Virus record (IMG/VR): IMGVR_UViG_3300001344_000002
Reading direction: 5' to 3' (one strand)
From: an uncultured virus (IMG/VR IMGVR_UViG_3300001344_000002)
Taxonomy: Duplodnaviria > Heunggongvirae > Uroviricota > Caudoviricetes
Length of the DNA: 64,000 nt
Below the pieces are notes generated by a model. The model had not been told where the DNA came from and made no database searches. It was given only the letters and a program-made list of their open reading frames with translations. Made by a program: the position numbers and the translations under genes. Below, piece by piece: positions 265 to 62,095 of this stretch (position 1 is its first letter; every line of letters starts with the position of its first letter).

Positions 265-294
265 AAAGGTGTGTGTAAAAGCACATCTTTTTTT
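265..294 (+). terminator. intrinsic terminator
   Basis: AAAGGTGTGT/GCACATCTTT stem followed by a T-tract. Confidence 0.7.
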
Positions 295-299
295 AAACA

Positions 300-321
300 A
301 CTGCTCCCTTCCCATAATATG
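300..321 (+). promoter_or_regulatory. repeated motif copy 1 (ACTGCTCCCTTCC-N6-ATG), putative phage RNAP promoter
   Basis: ACTGCTCCCTTCCCATATAATG, one of five co-oriented copies. Confidence 0.7.
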
Positions 322-417
322 TACTGGGAATGCATCCTGGGGAAGCAAGGCCTGCGGAGGCTACTGCTTAATACACCTACCAGAGGAGGTTCTACGGATG
401 CACCAGTACTTTTTTTA
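321..417 (+). ncRNA. putative structured small non-coding RNA
   Basis: Nested stems GTACTGG/CCAGTAC, TGCATCC/GGATGCA, AAGCA/TGCTT and ACCT/AGGT; GC-rich island; ends in a T-tract; starts at the last base of the repeated motif. Confidence 0.65.
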
Positions 418-465
418 TTTTAACTGCTACTGGTCATACAATCTTATACCATCCATATAACTTTC

Positions 466-487
466 ACTGCTCCCTTCCTTTCTTATG
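466..487 (+). promoter_or_regulatory. repeated motif copy 2
   Basis: ACTGCTCCCTTCCTTTCTTATG, 35 nt before the ORF at 523. Confidence 0.7.
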
Positions 488-927: not shown

Positions 928-1254
928 ATTTAAATGTGTATAGCATTATAAATGTGAGGTCTCATACCCACAATATACCACCTTTTACCACTATCATAAC
1001 TATCATAGCACATTAATATATTAATATAGCTAACATAAGAGCATAAACATTAAATTGGGTATGGTACGGAGATTGACAATTGATTTGCAAGTCATGCGTC
1101 CACGTTTATCATCACTCTTATGCTAGCTTATATTACAAGAGTAACTATTACACTCAACAATACTACATGGGTAATGTCTGTCTCTTCCTCTATAGGATAA
1201 TAGACATAGTACCCGGAATCTTATTAATCAAATGTCTAAATTAAATAAACAATT

Positions 1255-4546: not shown

Positions 4547-4568
4547 ACTACTCCCTTCCTCAAATATG
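4547..4568 (+). promoter_or_regulatory. repeated motif copy 4
   Basis: ACTACTCCCTTCCTCAAATATG, 38 nt before the ORF at 4607, preceded by a hairpin at 4497-4534. Confidence 0.65.
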
Positions 4569-5396: not shown

Positions 5397-5473
5397 GGTC
5401 CTATAGCTCAACTGGATAGAGCAACAGCCTTCTAAGCTGTAGGTTCTAGGTTCAAATCCTAGTGGGATCACCA
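5397..5473 (+). tRNA. tRNA-Arg(TCT)
   Basis: Cloverleaf; ACAGC-CTTCTAA-GCTGT anticodon arm; GGTTCAAATCC T-arm; encoded CCA. Confidence 0.95.
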
Positions 5474-5562
5474 GGCCGGATGATGGAATTGGTAGACATG
5501 ACAGACTTAAAATCTGTTGAACTGGATAGTTCGTGTGGGTTCAAGTCCCACTCCGGCTACCA
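5474..5562 (+). tRNA. tRNA-Leu(TAA)
   Basis: GGCCGGA/TCCGGCT acceptor stem; ACAGA-CTTAAAA-TCTGT anticodon arm; long variable arm; encoded CCA. Confidence 0.95.
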
Positions 5563-5638
5563 GGACTCTTAGCTCAGTTGGTCAGAGCACTCCGCTCATA
5601 ACGGATAGGTCATAGGTTCAAGTCCTATAGGGTCCACC
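5563..5638 (+). tRNA. tRNA with CAT anticodon, most likely tRNA-Ile2 (lysidine, reads AUA), otherwise elongator Met
   Basis: GGACTCT/AGGGTCC acceptor stem and CTCATAA loop; the body resembles bacterial Ile2 tRNAs and lacks initiator features. Confidence 0.85.
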
Positions 5639-8450: not shown

Positions 8451-9140
8451 ATGAATAATAACTTAATAGAAATTGACATAGAACAATTAAGAAATGATGT
8501 CAATAATAAATTAGAAGATTCAGGATGGGCACCTATGCTCTCACCATTTATAAATGGACTTGAGTTTGATATGATCATGAATAAACTAGTAGAATGTGTA
8601 AATGCAGAGAAAAGATTTACACCAAGATTTAAAGATATATTTAATGCATTCTTAGAATGTCCATATGATGAACTTAAATGTATAATCATAGGGCAAGATC
8701 CATATCCTCAGCTTGGAGTTGCAGATGGTATAGCTTTTAGCTGTAGCAGAAAAGGTAAAGCAGAAAAGTCTTTACAATACATAAACAAAGCAATTGGTAC
8801 AGACCACACTGATCTAAGGTGTTGGGCTAACCAGGGTGTATTATTAATTAATACAGCTTTTACAGTAGAGATAAATTCTATAGGGTCACATTATTCTATA
8901 TGGAAACCATTTACAGAATACTTGTTTGAAAATATAAATAGACACAATAAACAAGTACCATCTATATTAATGGGTAAGAAAGCAGAAGCATGGCAACTAC
9001 TATTAGATAGACAAAAAATATTTAAGGTAGCACACCCGGCATCAGCTGCATATAGAGGTGGTGAATGGGACTGTAAAGATGTCTTTAACAAAGTTAATAC
9101 AGAACTAGAAAATCAAGATAAACCTTGCATAGATTGGTAA
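8451..9140 (+). CDS. ung: uracil-DNA glycosylase, family 1
   Basis: GQDPY, GIAFS, QGVLLIN and HPAS motifs. Confidence 0.95.
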   Translation: MNNNLIEIDIEQLRNDVNNKLEDSGWAPMLSPFINGLEFDMIMNKLVECVNAEKRFTPRFKDIFNAFLECPYDELKCIIIGQDPYPQLGVADGIAFSCSRKGKAEKSLQYINKAIGTDHTDLRCWANQGVLLINTAFTVEINSIGSHYSIWKPFTEYLFENINRHNKQVPSILMGKKAEAWQLLLDRQKIFKVAHPASAAYRGGEWDCKDVFNKVNTELENQDKPCIDW

Positions 9141-21788: not shown

Positions 21789-23776
21789 AGCATTGGGTAA
21801 TGGATTATGAAACTTTATCTAATTGTTTCACAGGTGTATTTGAACATTATAAGACAAATGAAAGTAAAACGTTTGTTGTTCATGATCTGAGAAATGATTT
21901 TGATAAGTTTATAGATTTCCTAAAAGAAAATGTAAACAATAAAGAGTGGCATATATCATACAACGGCTTGGCCTTTGATGGTCAGATCACTCAATATATA
22001 ATAGATAATCACTACCTATGGTCTAATCTAAGTGGATGTGAGATAGCTAATATAATTTATAAGTACGCACAGTACTGTATCAATAAGTCTAATAACAAAG
22101 AGTTTATGGATTACCCCATATGGAAAATGAAGATAGGTCAAATAGATTTATTTAAGTTACATCATTGGGATAACCCGGCTAAACGTTCTAGTCTTAAGTG
22201 GATACAATACAGTATGGACTGGCAGAATATATTAGAGATGCCTATAGATCATACAGCTGAGATTAAAACTCTTGAAGAGATTGATACTGTCATTGAATAT
22301 AATGTTAATGATGTTCAGTCAACTAAAGAAGTATTTAATAGGTCAAAGTCACAGATTAAACTACGTAAGGAACTAACAGATACTTATGGTATTAATCTAT
22401 ACAGTGCATCTGAACCAAGAATCAGCAAGGAACTTTTTGGATATTATCTAACACAAAAGTTGAACATTCAGAAGAGAGACTTAAGGCAGATGAGAACCAG
22501 AAGAGATAGTATAAAAATATCTGATATTATATTGCCTTATATTAAGTTTACATCTCCTGAATTCCAGACACTACATGAAAGGTTTAAATCTTTAGAGGTT
22601 GATGGATCAAAGCTTAAGGGTAACTTTAAGTATAGCGTAAACTATAAGAATGTAAAAACAGATTTTGGTTTAGGTGGTGTTCATGGTGCTGCTAGCAAAG
22701 GTGTGTATGAATCAGATGATGATATGGTTATAATGTCATCAGATGTTACTAGTTTTTATCCTAATCTAGCTATTAGAAATAAGTTTTCACCAGGTCACTT
22801 TCCTAAAGAAGAGTTTTGTAATCAATATGAGTGGTTCTTTGATGAAAGAAAAAAGATTCCTAAGAGCAATCCAATGAACTATGTATATAAGATTATACTT
22901 AATTCAACTTTTGGTCTTAGCAATGATGAAAACAGTTTCTTTTATGATCCAGAGTTATGTTTAAAGATTACTATTAACGGTCAGCTAACTTTAATGATGC
23001 TTTATGAGCAAATTATGGAAAGAATACCAAATGCAATTCCTTTATTACATAACACAGATGGTGTAGAAACAATCATTCCTAGAGAACATATAGATTTATA
23101 TATGCAAATATGTGAAGAGTGGGAGAAAACTACTAATCTAGAATTAGAACATGATGAATATCAAAAACTAGTTCTATCTGATGTAAATAATTACATAGGT
23201 GTAAATAATTTTGTAGAAGTAGATATAACAAAGTGGAGGGAGATTAAGCAGAGTCAACCTCATTATGTATTTAAAGTAGATAATGATAAGTTTAGCTTTG
23301 CTCCTGTAAAACTGAAAGGGCGTTTTGATTTCCATGATCTACAGTTGCATAAGAACAAGTCTAAACTTGTAATACCAAAAGCTATTTATGAATACTTTGT
23401 AAATAATGTATTACCTCATGATTATTTAGATACAAATAAGAATATTTTAGATTATTGTATTGGTGGTAAATCTAAAGGTGATTGGAAACAAGTGGCTAGA
23501 TCTATTGAAGGTGGTGTTCTTAAAGAAGAAGATCTACAAAAGATTAATAGATACTTTATTTCTAAGTCAGGTGTTAAAATTACAAAAGTAAATAAGAAAG
23601 ATGGTAGGGAAATACAACTAGAAGCAGGCCGCTGGTTGCAAACAGTATATAATGATATGAAAGTAGAACCTAAATGGGAAAACTATAATATTAATAAAGT
23701 TTACTACTTGCAAGCAATTGAGTCTGAGATAGATAGTATATTGTCTGTATCAGCTAATCAATTAAAGTTATTTTAA
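21785..23776 (+). CDS. polB: family B DNA polymerase
   Basis: Exonuclease motifs DYE, YNGLAFD and YNVND; polymerase motifs DVTSFYP, KIILNSTFG and NTDG. Confidence 0.95.
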   Translation: MKHWVMDYETLSNCFTGVFEHYKTNESKTFVVHDLRNDFDKFIDFLKENVNNKEWHISYNGLAFDGQITQYIIDNHYLWSNLSGCEIANIIYKYAQYCINKSNNKEFMDYPIWKMKIGQIDLFKLHHWDNPAKRSSLKWIQYSMDWQNILEMPIDHTAEIKTLEEIDTVIEYNVNDVQSTKEVFNRSKSQIKLRKELTDTYGINLYSASEPRISKELFGYYLTQKLNIQKRDLRQMRTRRDSIKISDIILPYIKFTSPEFQTLHERFKSLEVDGSKLKGNFKYSVNYKNVKTDFGLGGVHGAASKGVYESDDDMVIMSSDVTSFYPNLAIRNKFSPGHFPKEEFCNQYEWFFDERKKIPKSNPMNYVYKIILNSTFGLSNDENSFFYDPELCLKITINGQLTLMMLYEQIMERIPNAIPLLHNTDGVETIIPREHIDLYMQICEEWEKTTNLELEHDEYQKLVLSDVNNYIGVNNFVEVDITKWREIKQSQPHYVFKVDNDKFSFAPVKLKGRFDFHDLQLHKNKSKLVIPKAIYEYFVNNVLPHDYLDTNKNILDYCIGGKSKGDWKQVARSIEGGVLKEEDLQKINRYFISKSGVKITKVNKKDGREIQLEAGRWLQTVYNDMKVEPKWENYNINKVYYLQAIESEIDSILSVSANQLKLF

Positions 23777-24609
23777 TGATTAAAAAACAAAAGACTAAGA
23801 CTCTTGTAACCAAACCAAATAACAATAGTGCAAACTGCATAGCTCCAAATGTAATCTACGGGTGTTTTGGAGGCTGTGTAGACACTTATTGTTATATGTC
23901 AAGGTATAATGGTAAAAGAGTCTTTGTCAATGAAAATGTTGATGAAATATTTCAGTCTGTTGTTGAATGGGAAAAAGGTTACTTTAAGAATCCTGATCAG
24001 CAAGACCCTATATATACTATGGTAGATGTAGCGTGTAACTCAGATTTAGTTATGATGCAGAAACATATGCCAGAACCGTTGATTGATTATCTTAAACGTT
24101 ATGATGATCACCCGCAGCTTAATACTACTATGGCTACAAAGTATCCAGGTTTATTGAAGTTAGATGTAAATCATTTTAATAAACCACCAAGGGTCCGTGT
24201 TAGTCTTATGCCTCAGAAGTATTCTAATATATTAGAACCTAAGATGCAGCCAATAGAGAGCCGTATAACTGATGTTAATAGACTCAAGAAATTGGGCTGG
24301 GAAGTACATTTAAATTATAGCCCTCTTATCTTTTATCCAGGTTGGAAAGAAGAGTACAATGATTTGTTTTCTGAAGTAAATGCATATGCAGGCATAAATA
24401 AGTGTGAAGTAATAGCATTAACTAATCATAAGCATCAAATGGCCAAGGCTTCACCAGAAGCAAAAGAGTTGATGAGACGCTCAAGTGAAGTTAAGAATCA
24501 AACGGGTGTAATGAGATATCCTTTAGAGCATAAAGGTAGATTGTTACATGAATTTAAGAAAATATATCAAAAATATTTTCCTTTAGAAACAATAAGATAC
24601 ATATTTTAA
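23776..24609 (+). CDS. spore photoproduct lyase-like radical SAM enzyme
   Basis: GCFGGCVDTYCY cluster motif, ACNSD (as in SplB xCTSD), ATK and RVRVSL. Confidence 0.8.
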   Translation: MIKKQKTKTLVTKPNNNSANCIAPNVIYGCFGGCVDTYCYMSRYNGKRVFVNENVDEIFQSVVEWEKGYFKNPDQQDPIYTMVDVACNSDLVMMQKHMPEPLIDYLKRYDDHPQLNTTMATKYPGLLKLDVNHFNKPPRVRVSLMPQKYSNILEPKMQPIESRITDVNRLKKLGWEVHLNYSPLIFYPGWKEEYNDLFSEVNAYAGINKCEVIALTNHKHQMAKASPEAKELMRRSSEVKNQTGVMRYPLEHKGRLLHEFKKIYQKYFPLETIRYIF

Positions 24610-37950: not shown

Positions 37951-38931
37951 ATGAACAAAGACATCTTTAAACCTAGAACAAATATATTACCTTATGAGTA
38001 CCCTCAACTATTAGCATACAAGGATGCTATAAGACATTCTTACTGGATAGACACTGAGTTTAATTTTACAGAAGACATTCAAGACTTTAAGGTCACTATA
38101 TCTAATAAAGAAAAAGATGTTATTAAAAAGACAATGCTTGCTATTGCTCAAATAGAGGTTAATGTAAAAACTTTTTGGGGAGATCTTTATAAGCGTATGC
38201 CTATTACAGAAATAGGTGATGTTGGTTTTACTTTTGCTGAGTCAGAAGTAAGACACAAAGATGCTTACGCCAGACTGCTTAGAATACTAGGATTAGAAAA
38301 AGAATTTCAATCAGTAGTTGAAGTACCGGCAATAGAAGGTAGACTTAAGTATTTAAAAAAGTACTTAGATGGTACACGTTCTAGAGATAATAAAATGTAT
38401 ACTAAGTCTGTATTACTGTTCTCTTTATTTATAGAGCACGTAAGTCTATTCAGTCAGTTCCTAATTATGATGAGTTTCAACAAAGAAAAAAATGTACTTA
38501 AAGGTATATCTAATGTTGTTGAGGCCACTAGTAAAGAAGAAGAGATACACGGAAACTTTGGTGCTGAAATTATCAATATTATTAAAAAAGAAAACCCTGA
38601 ATGGTTTGATGCAGAGTTTGAAGAGCTCATCTATTCTGCATGTAGAAAAGCGTATAGAGCAGAATGTGGTATACTAGATTGGATCTTTGAGCAAGGAGAA
38701 TTAGATTTCCTACCTAAGCAAACTGTCTATCACTTTATAAAAAATAGATTTAATAACTCTTTAGAAAAGATAGGCATGAAACCAATCTTTGAAGTAGATA
38801 ATGAATTATTAAAATCAGTGGAATGGTTTGACATAGAGATAACTGGAACCAAAGAAGGAGACTTCTTTTACAAAAAGAGTGTAGACTACAATAAAAAAAG
38901 TAAAAGCATCACAGTTGATGATTTATTTTAA
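37951..38931 (+). CDS. nrdB: ribonucleotide reductase beta subunit (class Id-like)
   Basis: AIAQIEVNVKTFW, ESEVRHKDAY, EEEIH and DFF..KSVDY motifs. Confidence 0.92.
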   Translation: MNKDIFKPRTNILPYEYPQLLAYKDAIRHSYWIDTEFNFTEDIQDFKVTISNKEKDVIKKTMLAIAQIEVNVKTFWGDLYKRMPITEIGDVGFTFAESEVRHKDAYARLLRILGLEKEFQSVVEVPAIEGRLKYLKKYLDGTRSRDNKMYTKSVLLFSLFIEHVSLFSQFLIMMSFNKEKNVLKGISNVVEATSKEEEIHGNFGAEIINIIKKENPEWFDAEFEELIYSACRKAYRAECGILDWIFEQGELDFLPKQTVYHFIKNRFNNSLEKIGMKPIFEVDNELLKSVEWFDIEITGTKEGDFFYKKSVDYNKKSKSITVDDLF

Positions 38932-38943
38932 AAACAAAAACCA

Positions 38944-48433: not shown

Positions 48434-51400
48434 TTAAATTCCTAATATACATTTCTTTACATAATCCTCAAAAGCCTCTTCTGATTTGAACTCAGTATTT
48501 GGACTATTATAAAAGTCCACCATACCTTCAAGAGAATCTAAATTATTATTTTCTAATATATCTCTATAAGCAACTATATCTCCTCCAACCCCAGGCACTG
48601 TAAAGATACTATTATAAAATGAACTAATGACAGGATATTTATCACTAATCTCAGTATCAAAGTCAAAGGTAAGTTGTTGTCTCTCTTCTGTTTCTACTGG
48701 CATATTTTCTTGTGCATCCACTATACCTGTTGCTTCAGTTTCAACATTTTCTTCTGCTTGTTCATCTGACTTTAATATAGAGTCTAATAAACCGGTATCT
48801 GAAATATTAATGGCTTTTTGAGAATCTTCAGCTGTAAAATTGATTTCATCTTCTGTTGCTTCAATTGTTGCATTTTCATTTGCTAATGCTTGATTTTGTG
48901 GTGAATTTACAGGAGGTGCCATTTGCTCTACTGTCATTGCACCAAATGATTCTGCACCGTAAGCACTTTTCATTTCACCTTTATTCCTGATGTTATCCCT
49001 ATTCTCTAAAGTAGTAGGTCTTTCTCCAAACATAAACCCAATACCATTTTGATAATAAGAACCTTCCATTTGACTTAGTTTATAATTTGCTTTTTTCTTA
49101 TCTATATTATCTAGTACATATAGCTGGCTAAAACCGGTTATTGCATCTGCAAAATTTATATATCTAGGTAATGCATCTGGGTCACCATCTTTATCCATAG
49201 TATAAACTACATTACCTTCTTTTGATGTGTAACGTGAATTTATATCTAAAGGATCACCAACCGTAATTGTTTTAACTTTTGAGTTAGTTGATGCAGATTT
49301 AAAATAACCATTCTCAAAATAATCAACTAAGTCATTACGCTCAGCACCAAATGTTTCTAACCAACCTTTATTAGTTAGAAAAACATCATTAACATTGTTA
49401 ATTTGTTGTAAGTATTCATCCATCACAAATGGAGAAATAGCATCTAACAAACTTCCCTTAGCTGCCTGTAAACCATCTTTAACCATTATATAGTTAACTA
49501 TAGTCATAGCATCTTTTCTTAAAAGTGGGTTGCCATAAAGTTTAGTAAATGATGTTTGCAAATCAACTTTTTGTTCTTTATCTAATCCTCTCCATGTGTT
49601 AGCTTGTAATAAATTCATACCTGTAATGTTTGTTTCTGCAAACATGGGTACCATAGTAACAAAACTTTCTAAAAAGAAGTTCCCCTTATCTGCTTGACTC
49701 AATCTATTAACTGCATCAAATATTGAATTCTCAAATTCATTAGGGTATAGTAATTGGTTTGTAAGTGTTGCACCATCTTTTACTTCAGACTCCTTAGTCT
49801 TTTGTCTATAAGCTTGTATAGTAAAGAAAGAAAGCATATCTCTTTTTACTTTCTGTTGATCTAATACAGTAAACGTTTTTTTGTTAGTGCTTAAATTTCT
49901 AGAAATCTTTTTATATATTTCATTAAATGCTGGAGTACCTGAAATAAATGTAGCAGGAATTAAATTAAAAGCAATTTGATTAAATACATCTATATTTGAT
50001 TTAACCCAACTATTTTCTAGTATTGGGCTAATATCCATCATTGGTTCTTGCGTACCTGGTAATACACCTATGTCTCTAAAGTCATCAACTCTTTTTTGTA
50101 TATCACTAAAGTTAGATCCAATACCACGGCCAGACATAGAAGTTATAGAAGCCATTTTACCAGTAAAACTTGATATAGAATTTAAATTGTTTATAACAAG
50201 CAATATAGATTTTTGTTCTTGTTTAGTAAGTTCTTCTCCTCTTACAGCTTTTTCTATTGTTTCTAATCCAACCTGTGGACCAGCGTTAACTTTCTTTAAA
50301 CCTTTAAGTTGTTGTTTTACTAATGATGTAAAGCTTGCATCAAACTTATCTACTTTGTTATTAGCTTCAGCAAATAAGTCCCTAACTAATTTACCATTCA
50401 GTAATAAAACAGCATCAGTTAAAGGTACACCTAAGGAAACTGCATTTACTGCAAGACCAACTGCTGATGGATGCATTCCTAATTTAGCAACATAGTTTTC
50501 TTTTGAGTTATCTGTAAGCATTGTTATTATAGAAGATATCTCATCTTGAATTCTTTTGCCATAAGTGTTTAGCTTTGTACCAAAACTATCATATGTTTGC
50601 CCTCTTAAATTAAATGCTAAGCTGCTCTGTATGTATCCTCCTTTTGTTTTAACAATTGAGCCTCCTACATTAATTTTATACTCACCTAATAAACTTAAGT
50701 ATAGGTTTGGTGATACAGCTTTACCAATAGCAGCTCCTTTGTTTACTTCAAAAGATACTATCTTACCTGTAATACTATCAACATCAATATTTTCATTATC
50801 TAATCTAGCAACATAATCTGGTGCAACCTTCTTTAATTCTTCATAAGCTTCTTCTATAGCAGTCAAAGAAGCTGGTGTAACTGATATCTCTTTTACAGCC
50901 TCATTACCCATTAACGCATACTTATAATCTAAAACATCATTGTTTAAAGGTGCTTGATATGGCTCATCATTTTTCTTTACATAATCGTTATACTGTGATC
51001 TTGTAATTGGAAGTCCTAACCTTGAGGCAGCCTTTATTGCTCTATCTGAAAAATCAGAATCTATAAGCTCTGCATCAGTAAATGAATCTTCTAACTTACT
51101 TCCTTGATCAGTAAAAGAAGCAGCAGCCTGTGAATATATTGTATCCTTATTTACAGCTTGATTTATATATCTTACATAATCTGTATATTCTCTACCTGGC
51201 GTCTTACCATAAGCATAAAAAGTATTATCATTCTTATCATAATAAGATTCTTTTATTTGCACATATGCTGTATCTATATCAAAATCTGCTCCTGATATCT
51301 GAACAAGTTCAGAGGCAAACATTGCAGAAGACCCATAGTATGCAGGCATAAAATCTACAAGCTTTACATTCATAGAAGAATGATTATCTTGTGAAGGTAT

Positions 51401-54400
51401 ACGTACAGCAAACATTTTACCTATAGAATCTGGTATAGCAACATTAGGTTTTCTTTGTAATTGATTATATATATCAGCACTATGTGCAGCAAAAACTCCT
51501 TCACTATAATATTGTCCAGTGCGTTTTCCATTCTGATCATACTCAGCTAGTTGATACCTTAATCTATCTCTTACTAAAATTCCTTTTCCATTAGATGGAA
51601 ACTTAAAGTCAGCACCTAAGTTATTTACTTCAAGATTTAAAACAGTTTCACCTTCTGGTACACCACCTCTTATAACTTCATTTCTACCTAACCTGCCGTT
51701 ATCCTCCATACTAAAGACACGTCTAAGTACAGTAAAACCTTTGTCTGATACTAAAGCTAAACCGTGACCAGGTATCTTCTCTTGAAATACACCTTGACTA
51801 AAGTAACTCATAAATAACTGTTCAGCCTTAGCAATACTAATAGGATTGTTTATATTGTATTTTACTTCACCAGTTGTAGGATCAACAGTAAAAAACTCCA
51901 TAAGATTCGTGCTAGCTTTAGATGCTTTTAATGAGTTTATTGCATACTTTAAAAAGACTTGTAGATTGGGTGTAATAGTATTTTTTTGCTTGCCTAATGA
52001 AAACTCAGACATTAAACCTTCAAAAGTATATATAAGATTTCTTTTGTCTTTAAACTTTAGTGCAATTCTTTTACTTAACGTTTTATTATACAACCTTCTT
52101 ACATCACCAATATCTTTAACATTAGGCATTCCTTTTATTTGTACAGGTGTGCTATCTATTTGTTCAGATGTAGCCAAAGCTTTTATCTGAGATTGCTCAG
52201 TTATTATATCTTTATTGGTTTTTGTTTTTACTTGCTCTCTAAAATACCTTGCATCTAATTGTATTGATGGTTCTATTATATCATTTCCAAATGATTGCAC
52301 ATTAGTCTTTAACATTTTAAAAGCACTCTTTGGTCCGGCAAAAGTAATATCACCTAAGTTTCTTTCCATTGCTTCCATGTTTAATCTTAACCTATTCAGA
52401 TCAGGATTATTTTTTGTAAGATCTTCCGTTAAAGCAATAGCAGAAAACTTTATATAAGTCTTACCATCAAAGTAAACATACTTCTTAGAGTTTAACATTT
52501 GATTAGTTTTAGCTAAACCTTGAGGTCCATATAAATCTTCTGCAGTAAGAGGTGTGCCATCCTCAATTTTGTCCAATGCTAGTGCTCCAGCTTTTGTTAA
52601 ATTTCCTAGTGATGATTGTGCATGTCTATGAAATTTAACTGTTGTAAATACTTGTGCATCTGCATTATCTATTGATTCACCATTAAACTCAGAAAATATT
52701 GTTGGCTCATTTAAAATTATAGCATTTATATTTTCAGTACTTTCAAATACACCAAATTCAGGATTAGATACAGGAGAATATATACTATCTCCAGCAGCAT
52801 TCTGTCCTTTAGCTCTTTTAATTTGCTTTATAGAATCTTCAAGTATTACAGCTTGATCACCTAATAATAATTCATTTAATGACTTAGTATTTAAATAATC
52901 ATTTAAAAATATTTGTTTTAAGTTATGAGTTTTATTATCTGTTAAGTTAAGTTTTCTAGATGCTGCTCTTGCATTTTGTTGTGCTACAGCTCCTTCAACT
53001 CCATCTAATAAACCTTTCTCTAAAAGTCTAGATATTTTACTATCTACTTCTAAAGTGTTTACCATCTCCATAAAAGATTCAAACTTTTTATCAAGCTGGG
53101 TTTCTATTATTGTGTTTATACTCTGACTACCTAAAGCTTCTTTAACTGCCTTATCAAAAGAAGGTGGGTTTTCTTGTGTAGCAGATATCTCTAGTGAATC
53201 TTTTAGCTCTTGAGAGATTAAATCTTTTGCATTAAACATAAGATTCATTCTCATCAAACCATCCTGATCTGGAACATTGTAACCTTCTATTGCTTTTGGG
53301 ATCTGTATTACATCACCTGTCTTAGTAGTAATTTCTTGAAAAGGTAAATTTCCTTCCTCACTATTTTCTCTGACAATTCTATTATACTCATTTTCTATAA
53401 AATCAGATACATGACCTAAGTAGTCAGGAGATATTCTTAACCCTTCATCTACTGCTTTTACAACAGGTAATAATACTTGATCATTTGTATTAGAAGATTC
53501 CATTATCCTAATTAAGATTGGTGCTACTGCAGCAGAATCCATTTTAGTTTTTAAAGTGTTATTCCTAGAGTTATAATCAAACAAGTAATTGTTTATAATA
53601 GATGTAGTAAGTTGTTTAGGTGTAAAACTGCCATACTCTGTTGTACCTATAACACCATCTTGATATGAATCTAGATTAGCACTTCTATCTAATGTCTTAA
53701 CTTCTTTTAAACCAGATAACCTTAAAATTTGTAGCTGGTTAGCTTCTGACATGCTTAAGAATTCTTCACTATTTAATAGATAATTATTTTGTAAAAATTT
53801 ATCTGATTCTAATCTATTTATCTCAGCCTCTTTATTTAAATTATAAACTTTTTCTAAATGAAATGTAGGCTTCTGATGTGCATTGACTAAATCACCATTT
53901 ACATTTCTAAATACTGACAAACCAACTGTCTCATCAAGCAATGCATTATTAACAGCTAATTTTTTTAATCTTGAAATTGCCCCTTCATTTTCTGAATTAA
54001 ATAAATCTCCATTTTCTTTAATAATATCTTGTAGCCAAAACATATCGGCTGCTAGAATAGGCTTTACTTCATTATTGAATTGAAGTATAGATTCTTGATT
54101 GCTAGTTTCTGTTTGATTTGAGGCAGACAATATACTATACTTAACATACAACGGACTTAACTTAATGCCCACACCTTCAAATAAATCTTGTGCTAATTTT
54201 TTAGATATGTTATCTAAAGGAACATCCTCATACCCTTCTGGTTGAATTAACTCATCATAAATAGCATTAACTGATCTTGTAGCAGCTTTTTTCTTTTCTT
54301 TATTTATTTTCCAATCTAAAGACTTAGTTGTATAAGCTTGACCCCATAGTTCATTTTGAGTATGTGTGTCATCTCTCTCAGCCGCTGAAAAAGATATTAC

Positions 54401-57400
54401 TTCATTGGTATTGTCTTGTTGTAAGAATATCCAATTTACTTTATAGTTAGTAAATCCTTTTGTAATTTGATTAAACAACAAAGGATTTTTGATTTCCTGA
54501 GGCAGTTGTATATCAGATATCTCAGATACATCATGATAATTTATTCCTATATCATTAAATATGCTTTCTACTGCAGCTTTAGTATTAGGGTTATTACCAC
54601 TAAATGTATACATGCGTTGTAATATCTTTAGAGGATCTGTCTCATTCTTAACAGATTTGATTATACCATTGTAAGTTTTAAAAGAGTTTATTGGTATAAC
54701 TAATTTTTCACCACTTTCTAATTGCTCATTACCAAATGCATCTGTATATGGCATTGTTATAGTAGAAAGGTATTGTCTTATATATGTTGGTAAAGATGCC
54801 AGCCCTCCACTCATATATGCTTCTTTACCAAACTGAGTTACATTTCTTAATCCTTCATTGTTTTCATACTCATCAATATTGTTATCAATGATTTGTTGTT
54901 GTACATCTATAAGTTGTAAAACTTCAAATACAGATTTGTATACTGGGCTATCTTCAATCTTTTCTGATGCATTAAATGTAAGTGCATCATGTATTCTTTC
55001 AAGTTGCTCAATGGCCGCTATATTAGAAGCTTCTTGAGAAGAATTATACTTACTATTAATTGGGTTTGTTACGTTATATAACCAAGCAAAATCTTCTAGT
55101 ACATCTTCAAATATATCTGCATTACTTATTTCTGGATCTATGTTTTCAGTTTTTCTACTAACATAACTAGCAGCCATACTACTAATTAAATTATTAGCAA
55201 TGTTACTATCTAGATATAAATAACCTTTACTACCATTAACTTGCAAACCTTCGTATGGTAATATAGCATTAGCTATAATTACTTGTGGGCTTGGGTCTAA
55301 TGTAAAATCATTAGCAACTACTGATGCTTGTGCATATTTGGCAGAATCAATATTCTCAAACAATGTTTGCAGTTTATTTTTATTGTATGTACTAAATAAT
55401 GATTTAAACCATTCTATTATTCTTGTAAAGAATGATTTAACTTCTGCATCTATTTTTGTTTCTTTAGGATTAGTTTTAAATATTTCAAACTGATCCGCCA
55501 TGTACTCTTCATAGTATCTGTTTTCTAATTCTATATCAGACATATTAGCATAAGTGTCTGCAGAGTTTCTGAACTTTTTTAGTTCAGTTGAAATTGATTT
55601 GCCTTCTGACCTAAGTGATTCTCTCTTTTGTTTTTTAGCAAAAGACAATAAACTTTTTTGTTCTTGTGGTGTAAGTAGCATCCTATATACACCATGAAAA
55701 GCTTCATGATATCTAAAAGGATTAGATGCTCCAGTATATAATGTACCACTTGCTCTTAACCCCCCACTTACAGAAGATAGATCTAAAGCAAATGCTCCAA
55801 CTCTAACTCCACCAGCTTTCATATTATTACCTAGTGATTCAATATCAGCTATATTAATAAATGAAGGCAAGTTTGTTTTAGCCCACTCAGTAAATATATT
55901 GATGTCTTCTACATCTCTTTTGGATAACCTAGGAGATAAAATTTTATTAGCTGGACCAATCAGGTCCTCTCTTTGCTTTAATAAGTCTTGATATATTTTA
56001 TCTTTTCTTAATGCTCTTACCTTTTTCTTTTCACCTACTTGTTCAGATATCTCTAATTCTCTTTCAGCTATCTGATTATTTATTGCATCTATAGGAGTTT
56101 GTGCAATTAGAGTAAGGTCAATATCATTTTTTTGATCTTTAGTAACTGTAACTTTTAATATATCTTCAATCTCTTGACTCTTGGCTTGACGTATTGCCCT
56201 CTCTCTTTGTGAAAGTTGTTGACCTGTTTTAATTTTATCAGCAATAGATTGTATTACTTTAATTTCTACTACACCATTATTAGTAAATTCTAAAAATGCT
56301 TCACTAGATATAGTATCATCTTCAGACTTGTCAAATGCTTTTTCAACATTTTCTTGACTTATCTTATCACCAAGATTAGTAATTGCTCTAGCTCTTGCTC
56401 TAGCAGGATCCTCTCTTCTTTCTTCAGTATCTTCTACTCTTTTTAATTTATCTGGCTCAAGTTCTGTTCTAGGTCTAGCTAAGAATATACCTTTATCTTT
56501 TGTAGCTTGGATAGCACTAGCACTTGCCTCAACATTAATAAACTGACCTGTTCTAATTTCTGGACCTAGCTTGGTAACTAAGTCTTGCATTAACATGTCT
56601 ATAGAAGCATCTAATGGTATTGACTTTCTAAAGTTGTTGATACTTAAAGTCTCTACACCAACCTCATTTCCTTTTGGATCACTAATAATCTTTTCAGAAA
56701 ATCTTTCCAAATGCTGTATTGTAGTTCCTTGCTTTTGTTGATCAGCTGCATTATAATATACTTTGCCTTTTTTACCTGTATACTTATTAAATAGATCTGC
56801 TCTTAATGCCCCATCAGGTGCAACATCTATAGTTACATTTACTCCTTTTGGCCCACTAATAAAGAACTCACCATAATCTTTAATAAATTGTAATTTAAAC
56901 TCATCATTAAAACCTTTGTCTTTAATAACTTTCTTACCATTCTTAGTAGTCATGTTATCTTTATTAGCAACACTTGCTTGCTGCAATAAATCATTAAACA
57001 TTTTAATTACAGTATCTTCTTCTACTCTAATTGCTTTTGCAGTTGCTAATGTCATTAATCCGTTAGGCTGTTCAATAGGCATTATATATCTATCAGTATA
57101 ACCTCCATTTGGACCAGTCTTATCACCGCTTATCATTTTATTCCAAAGACCTGCATCTTTAAGATTATTTTCTATTCTATCTGCCAATTCAGTTTTAGCA
57201 TCAGATTTTAAATTAGATATAATTGTAGGTTCATCACCTACCATATTACCAGCAGAATCTCTTTTTATATCATAGATAATTATAGCACCATCTGTAGTAG
57301 TACTTTGAGATAATTGACTTAATGAAATTTCTGGGTTAGTTCCTTTTTTATAAGCAGGTATACCATCACTTCTTGTTATCTTTAACCCTTCTGATAAAGT

Positions 57401-60400
57401 ACCTACAGTCTGATCCTTAGATATCATATCATTAGCAAATGAAACTAGAACTGCCTGTGTATCATAATCATTACTAACTTGATCTAATGCAGATTGCATA
57501 CCTTGATTGTTGCTTGAAGGTATAATTATGTTTTTAGCAAAATCAGTTGTCATAGCTGATGGAACAACAACCTTACCTTTAGCATCAACAAAATATAAAG
57601 AATCATTAGGTAAGAAAGCAATAGTACCTTCACCCCTTTCATTTACAAGCCTGCCTTCTATTATAGGTAGCTTGTTGTCTGTTAGCATTTTATTAAAATC
57701 TACAGTCTGATCTTTACTTAACTTAAGAGCAATAGTATATCTCTCTCTTTGTTTTTTAATATATGGGTTAGCCTTACTTTCATCATTACCATAAAATCTA
57801 TTATCCTTTATAGGCTCATTTATCATTTCATTCTCTTGAATGTCCACAATTAAATTTTGGAAATCAGCAGGTGTCAATGAATTAAGAAGAAACTTATAAG
57901 CTTCTGGTGATAAAGGAGTGTATGCTTTGGTTACTCTATCAGAGTATAACTTGTATGTATTAGTTGGCAAAGTATCAAAAGATAATTTTTCTAATTCATA
58001 ATTAACAAAGAAATCTAATTCACTTACAGGTTTACTATTGTTGTATCTTGTCTTATAGTCATTAGTATAAAACTCAGAAGGAACAATACTAATCATACCT
58101 CCCTTATTAGCTGTACTATTTATTCTAAATTCTTCACCTGTGTTTTTATCATATATAGACATGCCTTTTGACACAGCTTGTCCATCAAACATAAACGTAG
58201 AACCATCAGATATTTCTCTATCAAGTATATCCAATAATCTTTTAGCTTTAGATAGATCTGTAAAAGTACCTGTCTCTCTTATATCTGTTGATATAATATC
58301 TAACTGAACTTGTGATAAGCTACCTCCTTGTTTATCTATAATCTTATAAAATGACCCACCATCAGTTACTACTTCTGTAATGTCAAACATTACACCTTCT
58401 GCTACAGGGGGTTTTGATTTAGATACAGTTTGACTATTTTCAGTAGTAAATATATCCATTGTTAGGTCTAATGCATTAAGTATATCTACAACTGTTGGAT
58501 CTTCTAATGCTACTTTACTATTTAAATAATCTTGAAATCCTTTTTCTGTATTTAAATCTTTCTGAGTTGGTACTCTTCTACGTGATACTTGTTGACCATT
58601 TTCTGTTACAAAAATATCATATCCTTTACCCCATACTCTTTTTAATGCATCATATGCGGTTTTAATTCTTTTACCATCATCAGAAACTCTCCAATCTGCA
58701 AATTCTTTTGCATCTTTAGTAAATGCAGATTCTTTATATTTACGGTACTCTGTTTCAAGTATATTCTTTAACATAGGTGATCTTGTAGTATCTCCTATTT
58801 GTATATCATCTATGCCTGCATCCTGTAAAGTTTCTTCAACATCTATTTGTTGCTGAGTGCTTTCATTAGATTTAAGGTCTCTAACATCTTGTTCTCTTTC
58901 TGTTAAGAGTTTATAATTTAATATTTCAGCAATTATCTTTTTCTGTATTTCTTGATCTTCATTTAACTGTATAGCACCACCAAGAGCTCTACCATCAATA
59001 CTAAACTCACCTCTATTTAAACCTTCATATAAACCCTCAACGCCTATTTCACCAGATAAAAAATCTCTAATTAGTTCAGGCTTCATGTAAACATCATACT
59101 GAGCTATGGCATTTATTAACTTATTTTTTTTATCTGCCTCTAAGTATTGTTCTGTTTGATGTCTATATATTTCTTTTCTATTCTTAAATAAATATTCAAA
59201 GTACTCTACATTTCTTTGAACAATCTCAGCAGTAACTTCTGGGTTTGCCATAATGTTAACTGTTTGAGAAAATGCAAAAGCATCTTCTTGTAGTGCCTGA
59301 TGATCAATTAATTTTTGTAATAAAGTATCAACTACTTCTGGATTAACATAATCAGACTTATCACCTGCAATACCATTTAAATAAGTTTGTAAAGCACTCT
59401 TTATTGTTTTTGTTTTTGCTCTATTAAAGAAACCTTTCTTAGTTAGATTTTTAGGGTCAGTTAAAACAGCATAATATCTTTTTAAATCTTTTAACTTTCT
59501 TTTATCTTTCTTAAGTTCAGAGGCTGGTGTACCAGCATCTTCTTTAGCTTTAATTTCTCTGGTAAGCATTTTTATTTCTGTATCAATGCTTTCTGCATTA
59601 ACAAGAACTCTTACATCTCCATACTTTTGCTTTGTAAAAATAGGCTCATTCTCAAAGGACTGTTCTATATCAGCTTGTCTTTTTACTGCATCTATAAATG
59701 ATTCTTTAGAAAATATATATAACATCTTTGCTTGATCAACAGCTCTGTTATGAAACATAGCATCTCTATACCCTTTACTTGACTCATCATACTCTGATAC
59801 ATCAATTTTCTTTTGTTCAAACATTTCATCTGTTGACTTTGATGCTATCCTTTCACCAAATTCATTTATCCTACCTAACTCAGCTATAAATTCTTCTCTT
59901 AACTTTTCTGGACTTCTACCAAAATCTTTTATGTCAAATGCTTCAGCTAGTTCAGTATCAGACATTTTAGAAAAATCAGTAACCATATCTCTATATAAAC
60001 CCATGGTACCCTTTTTATACTTACCGTATAAATTATAAAAACGTGAAAAGTTTCTACCATTCATATAATCATACTTATCATTTAAAGCAATAGATAAGTT
60101 TGCCATACCTGCTTCTTGGTCCTGCAATGCAGCACTCATTTTAGCAGGGTCTAATAGTAAATCAAGTTCCCCCAACTGTGTGCCCATCTGATTAGCTTGA
60201 GATATTACATCATCAATTACAGATTCTTCCTTTTCTCTTTGTTGTTTAGCATAATCAACAACTTGTTTATCACCGCTTGGATCAAAATATTTGCTATTAG
60301 AAACTTTAGCACGTGCAGTACTAAAAATAGAAGGTACTCCTGTAAACAAGACTTGTTGATATGGTCCCATCATACCACCAATTAAAAATCCAGATGCAAA

Positions 60401-62095
60401 TGTTTCTAATCCTTGCTTAGTAAATATTTCTTTACCAGCAGCACCATAGAATCCAGACATAGTAAGAGCACCTCCCTGTGTAGTTTCTCTTAATGCTGCA
60501 CTATAGTATCCTCCTACTGCAGCTGATATTGCTTCTTGAGATACTTCTTGTGTACCCTCAACAAGACCACTAGCACCATATCTAAACATCATGCCTCCTG
60601 TAGCTTTTGCAGCACCTTTCCAAGAACCTAATTTAAATCCTGCCTTAATTTCTTGTGGAATAGACTTAAGCATGTATTTGCTTTTCTTTGCATATTGACC
60701 AGGGCCAACTCTTAACATTCTATTTAACTGAGTAGTTGTTCCTTGATTTAATTTTTTTGCCCAACTTCCAAATACATTCTTAAACACAACCCTGTTGGAT
60801 GCTGCTATTATTGCAAAATTAGGTGCTAGCGTTTTCCAAGATGCTTCAGATGAAGCTAATTGAATTTCTTTCATTTCTTCTGGAGACACACCGTTACCAT
60901 CAGAATTAAAGTTAGCATATCTCATACCATTATTTAAAACAGTATTATAAACTAGTCCCGCTTCCATTTTAGATTCAGCTAATGCAGCATTATACATTCT
61001 CATATCTCTATAAAATGCACCAAATACTTCTGTATTCTTTCCTATATTATAAGCATTCTGAAAAGTATTACCCGTAGTCTTCCAATTTTTTATTGTATGA
61101 GCCAGCTCAGGAGTTAAGAGATGAAGTCCTCCACGGCCAATACTTCTTAAAGATTTACCACTTTTGGCAAAATCATAAAACTTTTTAGCATAAGCTATAT
61201 TATCAAAGTTTTTTACTAGATTATAAGAAGCTTTAAAACCATTTGCTATTGTCTTAGGTATTCTTGTAAGTGTAGCTAAATTCTTTAAAGTTAAAGCACC
61301 AAATGCTGCTAATGAACCACCCCCTGTTGGTGCAGCTCCTGCAGCTGCAAGACCTGCAGCAATTACTTCTTCTACTGCAATCTGATAAACTATACCTGCA
61401 GAATAAGCCCAATTCAAAGCAGTGTTTGCAAAAAAACCACCTACACTACCTGTAGTACTACCACCCAATCTCATTGCTTCTTCCATAGTAACTGCACCCT
61501 CAAGATCTGGAGCAGTTGTATATCCTTCACCATCAAACAAATCACTTAATGATCTGTAATTTGCAAATCTACCACTTCTAAACAGGCTGAAAAAATTAGG
61601 TGTAAATCTAGTTAAGAAATCACCGCTTGTCTCATTTTGATTATAGACTTTATCCATATCTGCATATGGGGTAAATCCTATATCACTAAATATATCTGTA
61701 GGGTAGTACTTGTCAAAATTAATTGACTTAGCATTTGCCCAAATAGGATTGGGAAGTTCAACAGTTGTTTCTAAAGGTGTTTGCCAAATTTCATCAAAGG
61801 CAGATGTAGATCCTAATTCTGTAGGAATAGAAGGGGCAGCATTTATAACAGAAGAATTAGCACCGGCTGATATGTTAGCTAATGTAGCTGGTGATATATT
61901 ATCCATAAGACCTTTATACATAGATATACTCTTATCATACTCATCACTTACTTCATTACGCATGTCAGGAATTAAATCTTCTATGCTCTGATAAGGCAAT
62001 GATGTATCTATTGGATTTACATCTACTGCGTCCTGTGCTATTCTCTGTTGAAGATCATAATCAGGCTGAGGCATTTTTATATTCTCGTCTGCCAT
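48434..62095 (-). CDS. virion-packaged RNA polymerase polyprotein (4553 aa) with a zincin domain
   Basis: RIPSQ and GADFDID catalytic loop (51269-51292); HEAFH (55694-55708); hydrophobic Ala/Gly-rich N-terminal region. Confidence 0.9.
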   Translation of the reverse strand: MADENIKMPQPDYDLQQRIAQDAVDVNPIDTSLPYQSIEDLIPDMRNEVSDEYDKSISMYKGLMDNISPATLANISAGANSSVINAAPSIPTELGSTSAFDEIWQTPLETTVELPNPIWANAKSINFDKYYPTDIFSDIGFTPYADMDKVYNQNETSGDFLTRFTPNFFSLFRSGRFANYRSLSDLFDGEGYTTAPDLEGAVTMEEAMRLGGSTTGSVGGFFANTALNWAYSAGIVYQIAVEEVIAAGLAAAGAAPTGGGSLAAFGALTLKNLATLTRIPKTIANGFKASYNLVKNFDNIAYAKKFYDFAKSGKSLRSIGRGGLHLLTPELAHTIKNWKTTGNTFQNAYNIGKNTEVFGAFYRDMRMYNAALAESKMEAGLVYNTVLNNGMRYANFNSDGNGVSPEEMKEIQLASSEASWKTLAPNFAIIAASNRVVFKNVFGSWAKKLNQGTTTQLNRMLRVGPGQYAKKSKYMLKSIPQEIKAGFKLGSWKGAAKATGGMMFRYGASGLVEGTQEVSQEAISAAVGGYYSAALRETTQGGALTMSGFYGAAGKEIFTKQGLETFASGFLIGGMMGPYQQVLFTGVPSIFSTARAKVSNSKYFDPSGDKQVVDYAKQQREKEESVIDDVISQANQMGTQLGELDLLLDPAKMSAALQDQEAGMANLSIALNDKYDYMNGRNFSRFYNLYGKYKKGTMGLYRDMVTDFSKMSDTELAEAFDIKDFGRSPEKLREEFIAELGRINEFGERIASKSTDEMFEQKKIDVSEYDESSKGYRDAMFHNRAVDQAKMLYIFSKESFIDAVKRQADIEQSFENEPIFTKQKYGDVRVLVNAESIDTEIKMLTREIKAKEDAGTPASELKKDKRKLKDLKRYYAVLTDPKNLTKKGFFNRAKTKTIKSALQTYLNGIAGDKSDYVNPEVVDTLLQKLIDHQALQEDAFAFSQTVNIMANPEVTAEIVQRNVEYFEYLFKNRKEIYRHQTEQYLEADKKNKLINAIAQYDVYMKPELIRDFLSGEIGVEGLYEGLNRGEFSIDGRALGGAIQLNEDQEIQKKIIAEILNYKLLTEREQDVRDLKSNESTQQQIDVEETLQDAGIDDIQIGDTTRSPMLKNILETEYRKYKESAFTKDAKEFADWRVSDDGKRIKTAYDALKRVWGKGYDIFVTENGQQVSRRRVPTQKDLNTEKGFQDYLNSKVALEDPTVVDILNALDLTMDIFTTENSQTVSKSKPPVAEGVMFDITEVVTDGGSFYKIIDKQGGSLSQVQLDIISTDIRETGTFTDLSKAKRLLDILDREISDGSTFMFDGQAVSKGMSIYDKNTGEEFRINSTANKGGMISIVPSEFYTNDYKTRYNNSKPVSELDFFVNYELEKLSFDTLPTNTYKLYSDRVTKAYTPLSPEAYKFLLNSLTPADFQNLIVDIQENEMINEPIKDNRFYGNDESKANPYIKKQRERYTIALKLSKDQTVDFNKMLTDNKLPIIEGRLVNERGEGTIAFLPNDSLYFVDAKGKVVVPSAMTTDFAKNIIIPSSNNQGMQSALDQVSNDYDTQAVLVSFANDMISKDQTVGTLSEGLKITRSDGIPAYKKGTNPEISLSQLSQSTTTDGAIIIYDIKRDSAGNMVGDEPTIISNLKSDAKTELADRIENNLKDAGLWNKMISGDKTGPNGGYTDRYIMPIEQPNGLMTLATAKAIRVEEDTVIKMFNDLLQQASVANKDNMTTKNGKKVIKDKGFNDEFKLQFIKDYGEFFISGPKGVNVTIDVAPDGALRADLFNKYTGKKGKVYYNAADQQKQGTTIQHLERFSEKIISDPKGNEVGVETLSINNFRKSIPLDASIDMLMQDLVTKLGPEIRTGQFINVEASASAIQATKDKGIFLARPRTELEPDKLKRVEDTEERREDPARARARAITNLGDKISQENVEKAFDKSEDDTISSEAFLEFTNNGVVEIKVIQSIADKIKTGQQLSQRERAIRQAKSQEIEDILKVTVTKDQKNDIDLTLIAQTPIDAINNQIAERELEISEQVGEKKKVRALRKDKIYQDLLKQREDLIGPANKILSPRLSKRDVEDINIFTEWAKTNLPSFINIADIESLGNNMKAGGVRVGAFALDLSSVSGGLRASGTLYTGASNPFRYHEAFHGVYRMLLTPQEQKSLLSFAKKQKRESLRSEGKSISTELKKFRNSADTYANMSDIELENRYYEEYMADQFEIFKTNPKETKIDAEVKSFFTRIIEWFKSLFSTYNKNKLQTLFENIDSAKYAQASVVANDFTLDPSPQVIIANAILPYEGLQVNGSKGYLYLDSNIANNLISSMAASYVSRKTENIDPEISNADIFEDVLEDFAWLYNVTNPINSKYNSSQEASNIAAIEQLERIHDALTFNASEKIEDSPVYKSVFEVLQLIDVQQQIIDNNIDEYENNEGLRNVTQFGKEAYMSGGLASLPTYIRQYLSTITMPYTDAFGNEQLESGEKLVIPINSFKTYNGIIKSVKNETDPLKILQRMYTFSGNNPNTKAAVESIFNDIGINYHDVSEISDIQLPQEIKNPLLFNQITKGFTNYKVNWIFLQQDNTNEVISFSAAERDDTHTQNELWGQAYTTKSLDWKINKEKKKAATRSVNAIYDELIQPEGYEDVPLDNISKKLAQDLFEGVGIKLSPLYVKYSILSASNQTETSNQESILQFNNEVKPILAADMFWLQDIIKENGDLFNSENEGAISRLKKLAVNNALLDETVGLSVFRNVNGDLVNAHQKPTFHLEKVYNLNKEAEINRLESDKFLQNNYLLNSEEFLSMSEANQLQILRLSGLKEVKTLDRSANLDSYQDGVIGTTEYGSFTPKQLTTSIINNYLFDYNSRNNTLKTKMDSAAVAPILIRIMESSNTNDQVLLPVVKAVDEGLRISPDYLGHVSDFIENEYNRIVRENSEEGNLPFQEITTKTGDVIQIPKAIEGYNVPDQDGLMRMNLMFNAKDLISQELKDSLEISATQENPPSFDKAVKEALGSQSINTIIETQLDKKFESFMEMVNTLEVDSKISRLLEKGLLDGVEGAVAQQNARAASRKLNLTDNKTHNLKQIFLNDYLNTKSLNELLLGDQAVILEDSIKQIKRAKGQNAAGDSIYSPVSNPEFGVFESTENINAIILNEPTIFSEFNGESIDNADAQVFTTVKFHRHAQSSLGNLTKAGALALDKIEDGTPLTAEDLYGPQGLAKTNQMLNSKKYVYFDGKTYIKFSAIALTEDLTKNNPDLNRLRLNMEAMERNLGDITFAGPKSAFKMLKTNVQSFGNDIIEPSIQLDARYFREQVKTKTNKDIITEQSQIKALATSEQIDSTPVQIKGMPNVKDIGDVRRLYNKTLSKRIALKFKDKRNLIYTFEGLMSEFSLGKQKNTITPNLQVFLKYAINSLKASKASTNLMEFFTVDPTTGEVKYNINNPISIAKAEQLFMSYFSQGVFQEKIPGHGLALVSDKGFTVLRRVFSMEDNGRLGRNEVIRGGVPEGETVLNLEVNNLGADFKFPSNGKGILVRDRLRYQLAEYDQNGKRTGQYYSEGVFAAHSADIYNQLQRKPNVAIPDSIGKMFAVRIPSQDNHSSMNVKLVDFMPAYYGSSAMFASELVQISGADFDIDTAYVQIKESYYDKNDNTFYAYGKTPGREYTDYVRYINQAVNKDTIYSQAAASFTDQGSKLEDSFTDAELIDSDFSDRAIKAASRLGLPITRSQYNDYVKKNDEPYQAPLNNDVLDYKYALMGNEAVKEISVTPASLTAIEEAYEELKKVAPDYVARLDNENIDVDSITGKIVSFEVNKGAAIGKAVSPNLYLSLLGEYKINVGGSIVKTKGGYIQSSLAFNLRGQTYDSFGTKLNTYGKRIQDEISSIITMLTDNSKENYVAKLGMHPSAVGLAVNAVSLGVPLTDAVLLLNGKLVRDLFAEANNKVDKFDASFTSLVKQQLKGLKKVNAGPQVGLETIEKAVRGEELTKQEQKSILLVINNLNSISSFTGKMASITSMSGRGIGSNFSDIQKRVDDFRDIGVLPGTQEPMMDISPILENSWVKSNIDVFNQIAFNLIPATFISGTPAFNEIYKKISRNLSTNKKTFTVLDQQKVKRDMLSFFTIQAYRQKTKESEVKDGATLTNQLLYPNEFENSIFDAVNRLSQADKGNFFLESFVTMVPMFAETNITGMNLLQANTWRGLDKEQKVDLQTSFTKLYGNPLLRKDAMTIVNYIMVKDGLQAAKGSLLDAISPFVMDEYLQQINNVNDVFLTNKGWLETFGAERNDLVDYFENGYFKSASTNSKVKTITVGDPLDINSRYTSKEGNVVYTMDKDGDPDALPRYINFADAITGFSQLYVLDNIDKKKANYKLSQMEGSYYQNGIGFMFGERPTTLENRDNIRNKGEMKSAYGAESFGAMTVEQMAPPVNSPQNQALANENATIEATEDEINFTAEDSQKAINISDTGLLDSILKSDEQAEENVETEATGIVDAQENMPVETEERQQLTFDFDTEISDKYPVISSFYNSIFTVPGVGGDIVAYRDILENNNLDSLEGMVDFYNSPNTEFKSEEAFEDYVKKCILGI

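Follow-up and report, generated by a model that had tools for sequence, protein, structure and literature searches.

Does the short GC-rich tract near the start of this genome encode a genuine structured RNA, and, if so, does it belong to a known class, and what might it do for the phage that carries it? The window analysed here is the whole stretch of 64,000 nucleotides, within which positions 321-409 form the richest of all 89-mers, with 55% GC against 32% for the whole window, in agreement with an earlier note that had described a GC-rich island in an AT-rich genome.

The carrier phage and the setting of the RNA

Judged by its genes, the carrier genome is a crAss-like phage. A near-identical genome (G008), with a polymerase 100% identical to that of the window, supplies a terminase, portal and capsid of crAss type (PHROG 6681, 6547 and 11589), and the nearest GenBank terminases, at about 25% identity and too distant for placement at family level, are those of Crassvirales and Flavobacterium phages. 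Kinship with crAss-like phages points to a Bacteroidota host. The large minus-strand protein in Table 1 bears DFDID, the motif of the crAss-like virion RNA polymerase, which transcribes early genes in phi14:2 (gp66; available part of 10.1101/2020.03.07.982082), and by analogy this polymerase would be likely to transcribe the RNA region. In G008 a strand switch and the first copy of a repeated motif precede window position 1 by about 450 nt, a layout that makes the RNA the third unit of this arm; it stands at the head of the replication-arm genes, and this position suggests early timing. The window additionally carries three abutting tRNAs, Arg(TCT), Leu(TAA) and Met(CAT), at 5397-5638, a ribonucleotide reductase pair on the plus strand inside a minus-strand block (37951-40569), a spore-photoproduct-lyase-like gene (23776-24609) and a uracil-DNA-glycosylase-like gene (8451-9140). 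The ORF headed by the second motif copy has a 109-aa paralogue, without PHROG or Pfam family, which is the first gene of the arm (G008, ~42.1-42.4 kb).

The motif CTGCTCCCTTCC occurs exactly at 301, 467 and 2412, and with one mismatch at 4548 and 11590, the last of these inside an ORF; five matches compare with 1.4 expected, and five were reached by 3 of 100 shuffles. The copies at 301 and 467 do flank the RNA, as had been claimed. A TATG follows 17-20 nt after the motif start in all four intergenic copies, and here its G is G321, the first paired base of the RNA, at or beside which we infer that transcription starts. No sigma70-like site was found at 299..320. It is the position after the strand switch, the virion RNA polymerase and the equal spacing in four motif copies that lead us to speak of a putative promoter and of a putatively immediate-early RNA; against this, the early transcripts of phi14:2 have no common upstream motif, according to the available part of that study (10.1101/2020.03.07.982082). 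The hairpin that probably ends the preceding unit is missing from the output of a terminator scan. One of six RNA runs (X5) contains a single 151-nt contig, of depth 2, at 278-428, which begins upstream of the predicted start. The RNA is likely to be transcribed early, as a discrete species of about 90-95 nt.

No credible ORF had been seen on the RNA, and this holds, as the 56-codon ORF that crosses the element (253-423) is not conserved. A small protein-coding ORF was considered and rejected: an ATG-led open frame spans the core in 4 of 26 homologues, and in-frame stops occur in 3 of 26. On this comparison the element is non-coding.

A three-way junction with a loop-loop pseudoknot

The tract folds strongly, as the proposal of a structured RNA had implied: the minimum free energy of 321-409 is -38.3 kcal/mol (z -3.87), which none of 200 shuffles equalled. 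The minus strand likewise folds (z -4.11), and because folding energy favours neither strand, the strand was assigned from G-U pairs, the T-tract and the orientation of the motif. The outer stems, GTACTGG (321-327) with CCAGTAC (403-409) and TGCATCC (331-337) with GGATGCA (396-402), lie exactly where the earlier note had placed them, and a T-tract does follow straight after the closing stem (seven Ts at 410-416). Its multi-branch junction with two hairpins was also found, although the borders of both hairpins required correction: the second consists of CCT (376-378) and AGG (384-386) around the loop ACCAG, not of ACCT with AGGT (387-390), and the first starts at G345 and leaves UU 368-369 in the junction, the register of P1b being fixed by two homologues (L264 and L448).

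In this fold a three-way junction sits atop a long closing helix; its UUAAU linker is kept, and the two hairpin loops form a loop-loop pseudoknot (Table 1). P2 has 9 bp, one bulged A and a 4-nt loop, P3 has 3 bp and a 5-nt loop, the return strand J3/1 spans 1-2 nt, and the 8-nt J2/3 linker reads UUAAUAYA or UUAAUCAA in all 26 homologues. The head comprises about 55 nt, and the closing helix is long, variable in sequence, and seals the 5' and 3' ends; in the alignments the conserved head is a module on a variable stalk.

Table 1 Features of the RNA locus and of the putative polymerase gene, with positions in the window
Feature	Position	Strand	Basis or remark
Upstream hairpin and T-run ending the preceding 72-aa ORF, likely terminator	267..293	+	Sequence; similar hairpins in relatives
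Repeated motif (A)CTGCTCCCTTCC..TAT, probable early promoter of the phage	299..320	+	Putative function
RNA body	321..409	+	Two-sided changes in 12/12 counted pairs of P0 and P1a
P0	321-327/403-409	+	
3-nt bulge	328-330	+	
P1a	331-337/396-402	+	
Conserved head	340..393	+	Homologue alignments
P1b	340-344/389-393	+	
P2	345-353/358-367	+	A363 bulged
L2	354-357	+	
J2/3 (TTAATACA)	368-375	+	
P3	376-378/384-386	+	
L3	379-383	+	
J3/1	387-388	+	
Loop-loop (kissing) pairs	355..382	+	G356-C381, G357-C380, plus C355.A382
T-tract	410..417	+	Likely transcript 3' end and right cassette border
Second motif copy, heads 112-aa ORF 523-861	465..487	+	No PHROG/Pfam family for ORF
4553-aa protein with DFDID motif, likely virion RNA polymerase	48434..62095	-	Motif and role from phi14:2 gp66

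Homologues and covariation

Pattern scans and a covariance model recovered 26 distinct homologues with flanks, comprising 17 distinct cores, all on phage-type contigs; members made up 39 of the 44 stretches in the last viral scan and 25 of the 42 in the metagenome scan, the other 5 and 17 being dropped by eye and covariance model. One divergent copy, L448, was reached only by the covariance model (32 bits, E 4e-7). The homologues covary, as the earlier note had expected of a real RNA: in a plain MAFFT alignment of 24 sequences, 21 of the 32 pairs show two-sided changes, and in a model-fitted alignment with 26 sequences 24 of the 32 do, counts that overstate independent events as many homologues are closely related. 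Neither count was reached in 500 shuffles, and slid controls gave 8-15 pairs. Within the head, P2 has two-sided changes in 6 of its 9 pairs, and P3 is invariant, so that it gains no covariation support.

The contact between the loops, which was absent from the earlier note, as were the patchy distribution and the spread across lineages described below, is compensated in its own right. Registered by hand, the central kissing pair is Watson-Crick in all 26 homologues (CG 22, GC 2, UA 1, AU 1), the second is GC in 25 and CG in one, and the third is Watson-Crick in just 10 and C.A in 16; three separate compensated departures from the majority type of kissing pair are found (the window with L025; L264; L448). 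These pairs also bear upon whether the RNA might be a base-pairing antisense RNA that silences host or competing-phage mRNAs, as its own transcription unit and highly conserved sequence could suggest. However, the loops covary with each other and not with an outside target, the ends are paired, and the longest word shared with the own genome (11-12 nt) lies within the shuffled range in 4/4 genomes, and we consider an antisense role distinctly improbable.

Homologues were not recovered from the other collections searched. One pattern scan of GTDB genomes gave two matches, both rejected by the covariance model, blastn against GenBank phages gave none, and the covariance model found no member in 6 cultured or human-gut crAss-like records; three weak model matches were set aside as chance matches selected by the pattern. 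A structure descriptor run over 1.9 Mb of retrieved loci returned known members only, with 1 match in two shuffles.

A probably mobile cassette in the predicted early region

In L020 the terminator T-run is joined directly to sequence matching the window from 418 onward, a junction that places the cassette at about 294-417. L020 and L021 represent a precise empty site, and in L030 both flanking genes are as in the window, without the RNA. On the evidence of such loci, the RNA is gained and lost as a cassette of motif, RNA and T-tract. A duplicated lineage-specific motif clearly brackets the RNA in 9 of 26 copies, involving four unrelated motif types, and bracketing beats all 20 shuffles in 11 of 26, two of them of low complexity. 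The T-tract is present in 17 of 26 homologues, a weak count in AT-rich DNA without a background control. In a second lineage (L048, L060, L064, L074, L098, L232 and L280) we found no bracketing motif, the T-tract is mostly missing, and the RNA sits among other structured elements. Furthermore, the head forms one arm of a ~150-nt multi-branch RNA in L103 (1950-2099, minus strand) and L448 (1455-1630, plus strand), with z of -5.9 and -5.0, a first hairpin that begins CAGGAG and a loop of 8 nt on the last hairpin; given these predicted long forms, the head is not always a free-standing unit.

This arrangement recalls the PeSL cassettes of T4-type phages, terminator-plus-promoter repeats that flank exchangeable cargo in hyperplastic early regions, yet PeSLs are sigma70-like and carry ORFs, whereas the window motif is not sigma70-like and its cargo is a folded RNA (comparison with the available part of PMC2839356). 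It also raises the question of whether the element is simply a cis structural element, such as a terminator, an end-protecting cap or a processing signal, or else hitch-hiking filler, given that a helix precedes a T-tract, that two copies (L048 and L232) lie directly behind a stop codon, and that repeat-bounded cassettes are shuffled in T4-type phages (same part of PMC2839356). We give little credence to this explanation, as neighbouring genes are already terminated by simple hairpins, and one would not expect a terminator to preserve, from lineage to lineage, an invariant junction and loop-loop pairs that are compensated.

Other multi-branch RNAs occupy the same motif-headed slot in L027 (2768-2875), L039 (2672-2800) and L022/L024 (2785-2895), with z of -3.5, -3.0 and -2.9; they are unrelated to the window RNA and have no Rfam match. 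Further hairpin-rich non-coding blocks recur next to the RNA, downstream in L060 and L232, upstream in L064 and L280, and ~250 nt upstream in L025/L026/L027, and suggest that the early region holds an array of small RNAs. A hairpin element at window 1165-1220 (z -2.4) is kept in L022, L024 and G023, sometimes there directly behind the motif, and window 1035-1134 is skipped in some relatives.

Distribution and probable exchange between phages

The RNA is single-copy in the five carriers searched whole, and was found in 2 of 50 records selected by terminase, which are mostly fragments. It is absent from G023, a 94% complete genome with a terminase 85% identical, though the early head is present there. 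Within 1.5 kb of the RNA, the most frequent ORF family accompanies no more than 6 of the 26 copies, several loci having short flanks, and a whole-genome BLAST across lineages, which sought a partner protein, found only core genes in common. By these comparisons the RNA is a dispensable, accessory element with no fixed neighbour gene.

Its distribution is also incongruent with phage kinship, as judged by terminases. L051 and L048 share an RNA identical at 72 of 77 nt (94%), and their terminases are 25% identical; the window and L448 have terminases 83% identical, and RNAs less than half identical (30/82 or 32/72, in imperfect registers). Horizontal exchange is probably the simplest reading of this pattern, although uneven purifying selection may be responsible instead.

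Comparison with known RNA families

The earlier note had not recognised the class of this RNA, and Rfam 15 offered no match at the gathering threshold to challenge its novelty; a relaxed search (E up to 10) with the window copy and two homologues gave only chance-level matches, different each time. Nor is it a tRNA, as the note had also stated: ARAGORN and Rfam were negative for the element, and the only tRNAs of the window are the three described above. Two kinds of mimicry were rejected. The tRNA-CCA resemblance of the window (GGATGC-A-CCA) is not conserved, most homologues having CTT there. Most homologues contain a 9-10-nt word matching E. coli 23S 2657, but 102 of 500 shuffles produced a match of at least 10 nt, the CCUA of the 5' strand is unlike rRNA, and the window copy does not contain the word, which disposes of a sarcin-ricin mimic. 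A search for Rfam CRISPR repeats placed none on the RNA; a match at E 0.11 falls on the motif at 461-486.

The order of elements is shared with the SRP Alu 5' domain, in which a closing helix, a long hairpin, a linker, a short hairpin and a loop-loop Watson-Crick pseudoknot follow one another around a family C junction (available part of PMC4231752). A direct test for SRP Alu features found the three-way junction with loop-loop pseudoknot in our RNA. However, by comparison with the same part of PMC4231752, which calls the Alu 5' domain tRNA-like without an acceptor stem, the window RNA lacks the UGU linker that defines that domain, has no helix 5, S domain or Rfam SRP match, and its loop-loop pairs number only 2-3.

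Type III hammerheads also combine a three-way junction and two interacting hairpin loops with a conserved linker between them. The hammerhead catalytic core has the consensus CUGANGA, GAAA and NUH. This core is absent here, its G residues being missing from the linker and J3/1 reading N-R in place of GAAA, and there is no Rfam match. Hammerheads do occur in phage intergenic regions, with a core that is almost never departed from (available parts of PMC3088659 and PMC6765202). The main rival to the function proposed below is a new class of self-cleaving ribozyme, which would process polycistronic early RNA, since the layout, in which a conserved linker of 7-8 nt connects two kissing hairpins, matches that of the type III hammerhead, and ribozymes are found between small phage genes and beside an anti-restriction gene (same parts of PMC3088659 and PMC6765202). 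The embedded, motif-less copies of the second lineage would also suit such a role. We nevertheless consider a ribozyme unlikely: no Rfam ribozyme matches even at E 10, a cut in the head would leave pieces held together by the 12 P0/P1a pairs plus P1b, and in many copies the RNA is the sole content of its unit.

The three-way junction, its invariance, the kissing loops and a T-tract directly behind the closing helix are also reminiscent of small-molecule aptamers of the purine-riboswitch kind, which could act as a cis switch at the T-tract or as a trans sponge for a signalling nucleotide. Comparison with purine and guanidine-II riboswitches gave no Rfam match and no consistent downstream gene class, and the ACG loop word is altered in 4 of 26 homologues. 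With no riboswitch family match, no clue to a ligand, and a fresh motif copy that would bypass a cis switch, we regard an aptamer as rather unlikely. More generally, a cis-regulator, one of the roles floated in the earlier note, is disfavoured, as the genes downstream differ between copies and the RNA is followed by a fresh copy of the motif; its suggestion of a primer found no support.

We found no description of this RNA in the literature. The parts of PMC10690425 that were searched were negative; this study reports some 10,000 viral RNA candidates drawn from IMG/VR, and its alignment files may list the RNA as an unnamed candidate. Taken on its sequence comparisons, the RNA is real and represents a new family. 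Its fold is well supported and its function putative; its architecture is of a known type, but it belongs to no known family.

A putative decoy

We favour, tentatively and with not quite even confidence, an early, trans-acting, folded decoy or inhibitor that would bind a host protein or ribonucleoprotein in defence or host take-over, a role close to the decoy or anti-defence RNA that the earlier note had listed among its suggestions. Under this proposal, the virion RNA polymerase would start at the motif promoter, with +1 near G321, and the T-tract would end the transcript; the paired 5' and 3' ends would stabilise the RNA, the invariant unpaired nucleotides of the compact head would make up the surface that a host factor recognises, and recombination at motif repeats or T-runs might move the cassettes. 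For an RNA that appears optional, exchanged, early and end-sealed, with loops occupied by each other, a shape-based binder acting in trans is a better fit than antisense pairing, switching in cis or termination.

Precedents for such an RNA are available from phages. The abundant early non-coding transcripts of phi14:2 include two, g004-g005 and g005-g006, that like the window RNA come from the head of the early region of a crAss-like phage, but these are long intergenic transcripts, unlike the window RNA (available part of 10.1101/2020.03.07.982082), and our covariance model R1 gave a best score of 12 bits in the first 7 kb of phi14:2 and no member in its whole record. The RNA anti-CRISPRs Racr, rAcrVIA1 and rAcrIIA1 are small, promoter-driven phage RNAs that act as protein decoys; they mimic CRISPR repeats or guides, often beside acr genes, whereas we found neither similarity to Rfam CRISPR repeats nor a fixed neighbour (comparison with the available part of 10.64898/2026.06.03.729762). 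Indeed, the RNA decoys known so far imitate host RNAs that can be recognised, and no such host RNA was found here, which counts against a decoy, and a free-standing one is further challenged by the unbracketed copies of the second lineage and by the embedding of L103 and L448 in a larger RNA. A more specific version, which we regard as speculative and unlikely, is that the RNA beats host defence by shape alone, as a folded aptamer resembling a riboswitch, an Alu domain or a tRNA elbow, which would sequester an immune protein or signalling nucleotide without mimicking a CRISPR guide or antitoxin, and is one of a swappable repertoire of RNA effectors in crAss-like early regions.

Implications

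The RNA family found here is new, its tertiary contact is well supported, and it comes from a very large group of uncultured phages, the terminase patterns of which match about 3500 sequence stretches. The RNA is short enough to synthesise, and would provide a defined molecule with which to address the role of crAss-like early non-coding RNAs, while neighbouring slots carry several more uncatalogued RNAs. If it proves to cleave, it would represent a new ribozyme class; if it is a decoy, distant phage lineages would trade folded RNAs much as they trade anti-defence proteins.
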